The position numbers and the translations under genes were made by a program. DNA of 64,000 nucleotides from assembly GCA_019058275.1 (NCBI GenBank), contig JAHLVW010000108.1:20919-84918 (forward strand), given 5' to 3'. Numbering within the stretch: the first letter of the stretch is position 1; each line of letters starts with the position of its first letter. Source of the stretch: Candidatus Heimdallarchaeota archaeon. Lineage in GTDB: Archaea > Asgardarchaeota > Heimdallarchaeia > JABLTI01. The notes under the pieces are model-generated. The model was not told the DNA's origin. It searched no databases and saw only the letters and a program-made list of their open reading frames with translations. Positions 3,405 to 3,540 of this stretch are shown here, piece after piece.

Positions 3405-3540
3405 CCAACCAACTTAGTATTGGTTTTTCCCGCCTATGTTCCAAGCCTTCTTGGTCTTCGAGTTGGATGTACTCTGCAAGTCAGCATTGCTCATGGTCGG
3501 AAATTAATGCATCTCAGCATCTTTAGCTCTGACAAGACGA
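3405..3540 (-). ncRNA. Putative structured RNA / element end overlapping the 3' end of the Cas5-HD-like gene
   Basis: Nested complementary segments 3534-3538/3454-3458, 3529-3533/3480-3484, 3506-3510/3484-3488, then hairpins 3441-3454 and 3407-3425; GC-richer than other intergenic DNA. Confidence 0.35.

Follow-up and report, generated by a model that had tools for sequence, protein, structure and literature searches.

The window, that is, the whole stretch of 64,000 nucleotides analysed here, contains a 4.1-kb insertion between a host gene for a 400-aa protein and a DUF4015-like gene (7615-8634, minus strand). The insertion consists of cas5-HD, cas7, a divergent AbrB gene and short cargo ORFs (Table 1). 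In all 10 relatives that have the host gene, this gene is conserved, uninterrupted and located beside the DUF4015-like gene, and the insertion site is empty, with the two neighbours about 150 nt apart. The left junction matches the intergenic end of these empty alleles. The first-pass annotation had noticed a junction with host sequence at the other end, and nine empty alleles map it to 3396/3395, where the host sequence resumes inside the start codon. Neither terminal inverted repeats nor a clear target duplication was found at the junctions of the insertion in the window, and no CRISPR repeat array was found in window positions 1-12000. About 120 nt just inside the left junction (7370-7486) are very A-rich on the plus strand.

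Table 1. Features of the insertion and of its right end in the window.
Feature	Position	Strand	Remark
Host gene	2197..3396	minus	Start (now GTG) and ribosome-binding motif come from the element end
Putative guide	3355..3395	minus	First ~32-42 nt of flanking host DNA; its first bases are the TG of the host start codon
Structured ncRNA scaffold, ~185 nt	3396..3578	minus	Overlaps the last ~25 codons of Cas5-HD; right end of the element
8-nt linker, pseudoknot to host DNA	3396..3403	minus	8-9 nt spacing at landmarks and mismatch register
Terminal pseudoknot, 3' strand (GGA)	3404..3406	minus	Also a Shine-Dalgarno-like motif for the host gene
Terminal hairpin P6	3407..3425	minus	Present in homologues with differing sequence
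Domain 2	3426..3503	minus	Nested P3-P4-P5 hairpin; apical loop on P5 (3474-3460)
Terminal pseudoknot, 5' strand (loop UCC)	3465..3467	minus	Pairs with 3406-3404
Domain 1	3511..3578	minus	P1 (3578-3573 with 3516-3511, and an inner helix) closes the variable P2 hairpin; inside the Cas5-HD frame
Cas5(Csm4)-like RAMP fused to a Cas10-type HD nuclease	3504..4487	minus	Broken copy
Cas7-like RAMP	4469..5398	minus	PF03787, E 1.8e-7; supported by alignment
Divergent AbrB/MazE-type regulator	5504..5680	plus	PF04014, E 2.8e-7
Cargo: short ORFs without assigned function, GC 41-43%	5700..7480	plus	Replaces the LAGLIDADG-HTH, aCas1 and PD-(D/E)XK genes of full-length elements
Left junction	7484..7499	minus	Left by the insertion: original Shine-Dalgarno and initial start-codon base(s) of the host gene

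Both RAMP genes of the window are broken. The cas7 gene has a TAG at codon 15 (5356-5354), and cas5-HD, which ends at a TAA (3506-3504), carries an in-frame TGA (4445-4443) and an Asp to His change in the HD motif at 4028. The cas7 stop and both cas5-HD lesions are absent from the strains of sequencing runs X5 and X6, whose contigs hold the intact codons, indicating that the window copy was inactivated recently. Three of the eight listed differences from a near-identical strain across cas7 and cas5-HD are loss-of-function changes, which suggests that an active module is costly. The joint of an empty allele was looked for in the contigs of the sequencing runs, and none was seen. A regulator of the AbrB/MazE type stands beside the module in 16 loci; in the window, an inverted repeat closes an 88-nt hairpin directly after this gene (5679-5766, plus strand). 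The three longest cargo ORFs matched no Pfam or PHROG family.

The genome of the window has seven Cas7/Cas5-HD modules and two truncated 3' ends of such modules. A search for related loci among genome contigs gave nothing. The structure model of an intact Cas5-HD paralogue matched the HD domain of Csm1/Cas10 (Z 8.2, rmsd 3.9, 145 aligned) and Csm4 (Z 7.1), both values being near the background range of the tool. The HD motif and a G-rich loop are kept, and the HD catalytic residues are conserved across all clades. Full-length copies of about 10-12 kb add a LAGLIDADG-HTH gene, a gene for a protein of ~670 aa (aCas1), two unknowns and a PD-(D/E)XK gene. The model of the ~670-aa protein had casposase and Cas1 as its best Foldseek matches, including casposase bound to its integration product (6opm, E 3.2e-7), and it was this fold search alone that matched, a PDB sequence search with aCas1 giving no recognition. 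The aCas1 gene is absent from the window copy and present in seven full-length loci, one of them (C89) in the same genome; many modules are without it. A 540-aa neighbour had also been considered as Cas1 and was rejected, being the LAGLIDADG-HTH protein.

The first-pass annotation had placed a candidate guide scaffold at 3405-3540, over the end of cas5-HD. The overlap held, and the extent had to be redrawn: the RNA begins ~40 nt further upstream, at 3578, and ends at 3396. The covariance model (R1) matched positions 3390-3586 with 171 bits, the window copy being part of its training set. In the window, the first 75 nt of the scaffold lie inside the ORF, and some paralogues read through the whole RNA. 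No family was found in an Rfam search of the scaffold (best E 2.4, far below the gathering thresholds). The earlier fold had been built from five complementary word pairs, namely GUCUU (3538-3534) with AAGAC (3458-3454), GUCAG (3533-3529) with CUGAC (3484-3480), GCAUU (3510-3506) with AAUGC (3489-3485), CCAAG with CUUGG (near 3454-3441) and AACCAA (3425-3420) with UUGGUU (3412-3407). All five are present on the minus strand and overlap the Cas5-HD stop, but four of them do not belong to a conserved fold. The columns of GUCUU and most of those of GUCAG are gaps in 17-20 of 21 homologues, and in the 21-sequence MAFFT alignment the first four stems were 71.2% paired, compared with 70.9% in shuffles (222/500), which is chance level. 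The last hairpin is P6, and every homologue has a hairpin there with a differing sequence. Folding of 3400-3545 against shuffles was marginal on the minus strand (z -1.76, 8/200) and had a z of +0.59 on the plus strand; the stretch 3385-3575 gave a z of -2.54. Among the differences listed for X5 and X6, both strains differ at 3573, an otherwise invariant A of helix P1, and the pair would break there unless compensated.

The end of the gene is more conserved than the gene itself, with 75-84% DNA identity against 65-69% for the CDS. The scaffold recurs in eight places in the genome of the window, and the covariance model found it in 11 of the 12 genomes of the order (10 of 11 relatives), with up to 14 matches each. 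Many of these copies adjoin only a remnant of cas5-HD, so that the scaffold persists without intact cas genes. In the MAFFT alignment the consensus fold was 86.3% paired, with double-sided changes at 25 of 42 pairs, a result reached by none of 500 shuffles; alignments slid out of register were 32-40% paired. The summed covariation was 438.9, compared with -0.6 +/- 21 in tree-simulated nulls, of which 0 of 200 reached this value, and the alignment used here was fitted to the model and leans towards structure. The same held for the parts: domain 1 scored 198.7 (null -1.3 +/- 13.7), domain 2 scored 240.2 (null 0.7 +/- 16.4) and P6 scored 66.1 (null 0.9 +/- 9.6). An R-scape-like test of 36 sequences, which is underpowered, gave no single base pair at E<0.05 (best E 0.18). 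Over 33 copies, the mean folding z was -2.34 for the sense strand, -1.26 for the antisense strand and -0.17 for the upstream CDS, and many of the pairs are G-U. Conservation downstream of homologous genes, covariation and stand-alone copies were the marks by which the first-pass annotation had proposed to recognise a scaffold, and these were found.

An origin of this conservation in protein coding, or of the stems in chance, might be argued from the 75 nt that lie inside the ORF, from the paralogues that read through the RNA and from the chance level of the stems first proposed. The conserved part of Cas5-HD stops short of the RNA, stop positions and frames vary across it, and the tail of the protein over it shows no conservation and is modelled as disordered (pLDDT about 35); coding therefore does not explain the conservation of the RNA. 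With strong covariation in three separate clades, this explanation is already refuted by the covariation counts and has a negligible probability.

The second-best covarying pair belongs to a terminal pseudoknot, which joins the apical loop of domain 2 to the three bases just after P6. It is 95.2% paired over 21 sequences, with double-sided changes at all three pairs, and it was picked post hoc from the top of the single-pair covariation list, outside the original model. In clade 2 (family f6), at about 33% protein identity, a different RNA covaries (87.3% paired, 0/500) and closes with a pseudoknot of 4 bp between loop and end. A third scaffold occurs in clade 3 (family f28), and its terminal pseudoknot is 97.2% paired. 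Two independent clades thus repeat the post hoc finding. Both clades (L111, L117-L119, L219, L225) have different gene neighbours, including a divergent gene of 1300-1440 aa and, in clade 2, a helicase-phosphoesterase. A fourth conserved sequence lies downstream of Cas5-HD in another family (L230-L232 and L236, genome G397).

In most copies of clade 1, a landmark of the host follows the pseudoknot at 8-9 nt, and in the window the junction lies exactly 8 nt past it. The landmark is a start codon at RFC-S, rpoE', S19e, an ABCE1-like gene and a Vps/Snf7-like gene; at other sites it is the +1 position of a tRNA, the antisense 3' end of a tRNA or an antisense stop codon. A ribosome-binding site cannot be the reason for this spacing where the landmark is a tRNA start, an antisense tRNA end or an antisense stop. 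Empty alleles were without the GG(U/A)GAUA motif at the tRNA sites that were checked, and together with the fixed spacing this indicates that the scaffold is the end of the element and that the element, in one orientation or the other, borders directly on conserved host DNA. The sharp boundary between conserved and variable sequence that the first-pass annotation had looked for is thus present, at a fixed distance from host landmarks. We rejected the idea that the motif is always host-derived, because it covaries with the P5 loop and is missing from the empty tRNA sites. Its origin is ambiguous at RFC-S, where empty alleles also have a similar motif. One RNA copy (L056:158-339, genome G003) lies upstream of a DUF4015-like gene, 9 nt from its start codon, and this gene is the neighbour on the other side of the insertion site of the window.

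A precise mark of the element end that is kept in truncated copies could also be a DNA structure for a transposase, comparable to the subterminal hairpins of IS200/IS605, and not an RNA. Its length of 185 nt, the pseudoknot, the frequent G-U pairs and the bias to the sense strand look like RNA. In clade 3, moreover, copies stand within the element, where arrays of up to three separate cas7 from cas5-HD, and this is against a DNA end, which we consider very unlikely. Somewhat less improbable, though still unlikely, is a cis-acting 5' leader: the RNA would replace the promoter and Shine-Dalgarno sequence of the host gene, and the pseudoknot, perhaps with the RAMP proteins, would gate translation. 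With such a leader on an essential downstream gene, loss of the element end would be difficult. A leader would account for three observations: in front of protein genes the Shine-Dalgarno-like motif, at a distance of 9 nt from the start codon, is formed by the pseudoknot strand; some filled sites (RFC-S and VPS) have lost the host promoter; and mini-copies persist upstream of essential genes. On the other hand, copies with the same spacing, truncated ones included, are also antisense to tRNA 3' ends and stop codons, and at these antisense sites the motif drifts from the Shine-Dalgarno sequence with compensating changes in the loop. At rpoE', the filled alleles (L004, L094, L105, L140, L155) all start with ATT, not GTG or TTG, and in genomes G001 and G009, where the RNA alone is kept, rpoE' has several amino-acid changes in its first codons, which are the would-be guide.

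The segment 3' of the scaffold in the window is plain flank, and a guide role was therefore tested in relatives. In clade 3, additional scaffold copies separate cas7 from cas5-HD, in runs of at most three. The segments 3' of these copies match the sequence directly upstream of cas7 at the same locus and vary with it from locus to locus. Over 36 nt, eight of the nine guides differ from the promoter type of their own locus at 2-8 positions and from the other types at 13-20; the internal guide of L221 had no match near its cas7 start. The 3' segment of one array copy matches 16S rDNA (40/43). When counting begins 8 nt past the pseudoknot, positions 6, 12, 18, 24 and 30 hold 24 of the 36 mismatches, and with one guide per family they hold 8 of 15 (p 8e-4). 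Established class 1 structures show that Cas7 flips one guide base in six and that an 8-nt 5' tag is held by Cas5/Csm4. Most of the decisive matches come from clade 3, and its scaffold has no recognisable sequence similarity to that of the window. Within the RNA family of the window, a copy in genome G006 (L097) has a detached spacer matching the 3' end of a tRNA-Asp 152 nt away at 17 of 19 positions, with the mismatches at 6 and 12, and shuffles have at least 5 mismatches.

The six-base register puts the guide start of the window at 3395, where the empty alleles resume, and the guide length in Table 1 is taken from the clade-3 guides. By analogy, we infer that the linker would be the equivalent of the tag bound by Cas5/Csm4. 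That promoters are matched, and genes in both orientations, suggests that the target is DNA. Duplicated promoter DNA could in principle also account for the promoter-matching segments. The detached six-periodic matches mean that the leader and the DNA end cover only part of the data, and a leader would leave the promoter- and rDNA-matching spacers and the six-base periodicity unexplained. No second match with fewer than 6 mismatches in 24 nt was found in the genome for the window guide, and the flanks of the copies in this genome gave no second target with fewer than 5 mismatches in 24 nt, except among tRNAs. No shared motif was seen 5' of the targets, and no PAM or TAM could be read from their flanks. 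In L225 (2407-2983, genome G308), three scaffold copies in a row form a mini-array with ~125-nt repeats, whose 3' segments differ: that of the first copy had no match in five genomes, and the others match 16S rDNA and the own promoter. Segments after terminal clade-3 scaffolds (L223:4481-4560, L293, L297, L305) are found a second time within the locus, at a distance of 0.2-1 kb, and are either detached spacers or insertion duplications.

By its features, the element is the ARAMP (Asgard RAMP), a group of array-less type III derivatives described by Makarova et al. (2020 CRISPR J 3:156), as summarised in PMC8730458 and PMC12669027. It shares with ARAMP the Cas7 and Cas5 homologues, the HD and PD-(D/E)XK nucleases, a distinct Cas1, the lack of an array beside the module and the host, which is archaeal and taken as Asgard on the basis of the ARAMP literature. 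The two summaries call the mechanism enigmatic and mention no RNA partner; catalogues since 2019-2020 list ARAMP and HRAMP as array-less and give no guide for them, and the 2025 classification does likewise (PMC12669027). In contrast, the modules described here end in a conserved scaffold with a 3' spacer, at conserved host landmarks. Our literature search, which covered these summaries and not the 2020 source paper, found no description of the scaffold RNA or of the flank-guide logic.

The closest parallel is OMEGA, the TnpB omegaRNA or reRNA of IS200/IS605/IS607, which takes its guide from the 3' flank and has a pseudoknot at its end (PMC13565253). As there, the RNA overlaps the 3' end of the nuclease gene, reaches the end of the element and has a pseudoknot; gene-less derivatives exist and the predicted target is the empty site. 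A guide from the 3' flank would be a further likeness: position and spacing fit, and guide-like matches occur in relatives. Unlike OMEGA, the effector would be a multi-subunit RAMP complex with an HD nuclease and not a single RuvC protein, the candidate transposase is Cas1-like and not TnpA, no TAM was found, and the spacer is put at 30-45 nt compared with about 16. Type III (Csm) systems share the Csm4-like and Cas10-HD-like folds, the 8-nt linker before the spacer and the tolerance at every sixth base, but here there is no repeat-spacer array, no Cas6 processing and no Palm domain, the HD part stands alone fused to Cas5, and the targets are promoters and both gene orientations, which fits DNA rather than RNA. 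The extra clade-3 scaffolds, whose spacers are partly complementary to the promoter of their own module, recall CreR/CreA (10.1101/2023.03.10.532045), with a structured scaffold of ~125 nt in place of a degenerate CRISPR repeat; such a promoter guide was not seen in the clade of the window, which has AbrB instead. Casposons and CRISPR-associated transposons are alike in the Cas1-fold integrase, which only the full-length relatives have, and in insertion at tRNA and conserved genes. The gene maps show no conserved neighbour of the size of PolB, the family B polymerase of casposons, and no terminal inverted repeats were seen. There are no Tn7 genes, and the guide would come from the flank.

Taken together, the data suggest, with a probability of roughly 0.7, that the element end encodes a guide scaffold with a 3' spacer for an array-less class 1 (ARAMP) complex. 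The proposal of the first-pass annotation that an element-end RNA is used instead of an array, in an OMEGA-like class 1 system, is supported by these data, with the guide function read from the sequence. A transcript through the 3' end of cas5-HD would fold into the two-domain scaffold closed by the pseudoknot, followed by the 8-nt linker and then about 30-45 nt of adjoining DNA as spacer. Cas5-HD would bind scaffold and linker, a Cas7 filament would bind the spacer and flip every sixth base, and the complex would recognise DNA identical to the spacer, which at the insertion site means the empty allele. We infer all these steps from sequence, from transcription and binding by the proteins to cleavage, homing and the discrimination of self from non-self. 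The likeliest purpose would be selfish maintenance as in TnpB: HD would nick or cut the vacant site, and repair would copy the element back. Such a cycle would favour elements placed precisely where conserved host sequence begins, because insertion within it would be lethal and a seed outside it would not be conserved. We hold this use of the guide, homing by cutting and repair, tentatively, at slightly less than even odds. A fuller picture, which we regard as slightly more probable than not, is a class 1 OMEGA: a Cas1-bearing element whose Cas7/Cas5-HD complex is programmed by one pseudoknotted element-end RNA with a flank-derived spacer, DNA being targeted for homing or for guided integration.

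The distribution of the elements bears on both uses. The elements group by insertion site, and at the VPS and rpoE sites their trees are compatible with vertical descent plus loss. At RFC-S, two distant hosts, both with empty closest relatives, have sister mini-copies, and the first 45 nt of the gene look exchanged, although weakly so (5 differences compared with about 11 per 45 nt), hinting at co-conversion. On this basis, homing of the elements is suggested only. The same guide could instead steer integration, the RNP marking the host site and recruiting the casposase-like aCas1 in a CAST-like manner, with HD as an accessory. The casposase match of the ~670-aa protein and the PD-(D/E)XK gene of full-length elements agree with this, as do the detached spacers near their targets (L097, L297) and the two RFC-S signals, the second again being weak. 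The conservation of the HD catalytic residues in all clades, the many modules without aCas1 and the bare junctions of the window speak against it, and we consider guided integration rather unlikely, though a better candidate than the leader.

The proteins belong to a catalogued family with a putative function; the RNA and the flank-guide logic are absent from Rfam and from the literature searched. The present result names a candidate guide, its fold, its end and its predicted targets for ARAMP, and it reduces the question to a one-step reconstitution. If the guide scaffold is confirmed, the transposon-end guide strategy of TnpB and IscB would also exist with class 1 proteins and a Cas1 integrase, and the element may serve as a model for the way in which a mobile element brought Cas1, RAMPs and guide RNAs together. 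It would also mean an array-free RNA-guided system made from RAMPs, and a compact two-protein programmable tool for DNA targeting.

Other repeated sequences were observed around these modules. The 540-aa LAGLIDADG-HTH family has 24 matches in the genome and flanks the ARAMP module in 14 loci; the copy in the window (~17423-19006, plus strand) has three stops. A second structured repeat of about 110 nt (59636-59780, plus strand) occurs in seven copies in the genome, one of them ~470 nt after a TnpB-like ORF (57864-59177) and three adjoining LAGLIDADG-HTH genes, and the same repeat forms the left end of three compact ARAMP copies in genome G006 (L101-L103).
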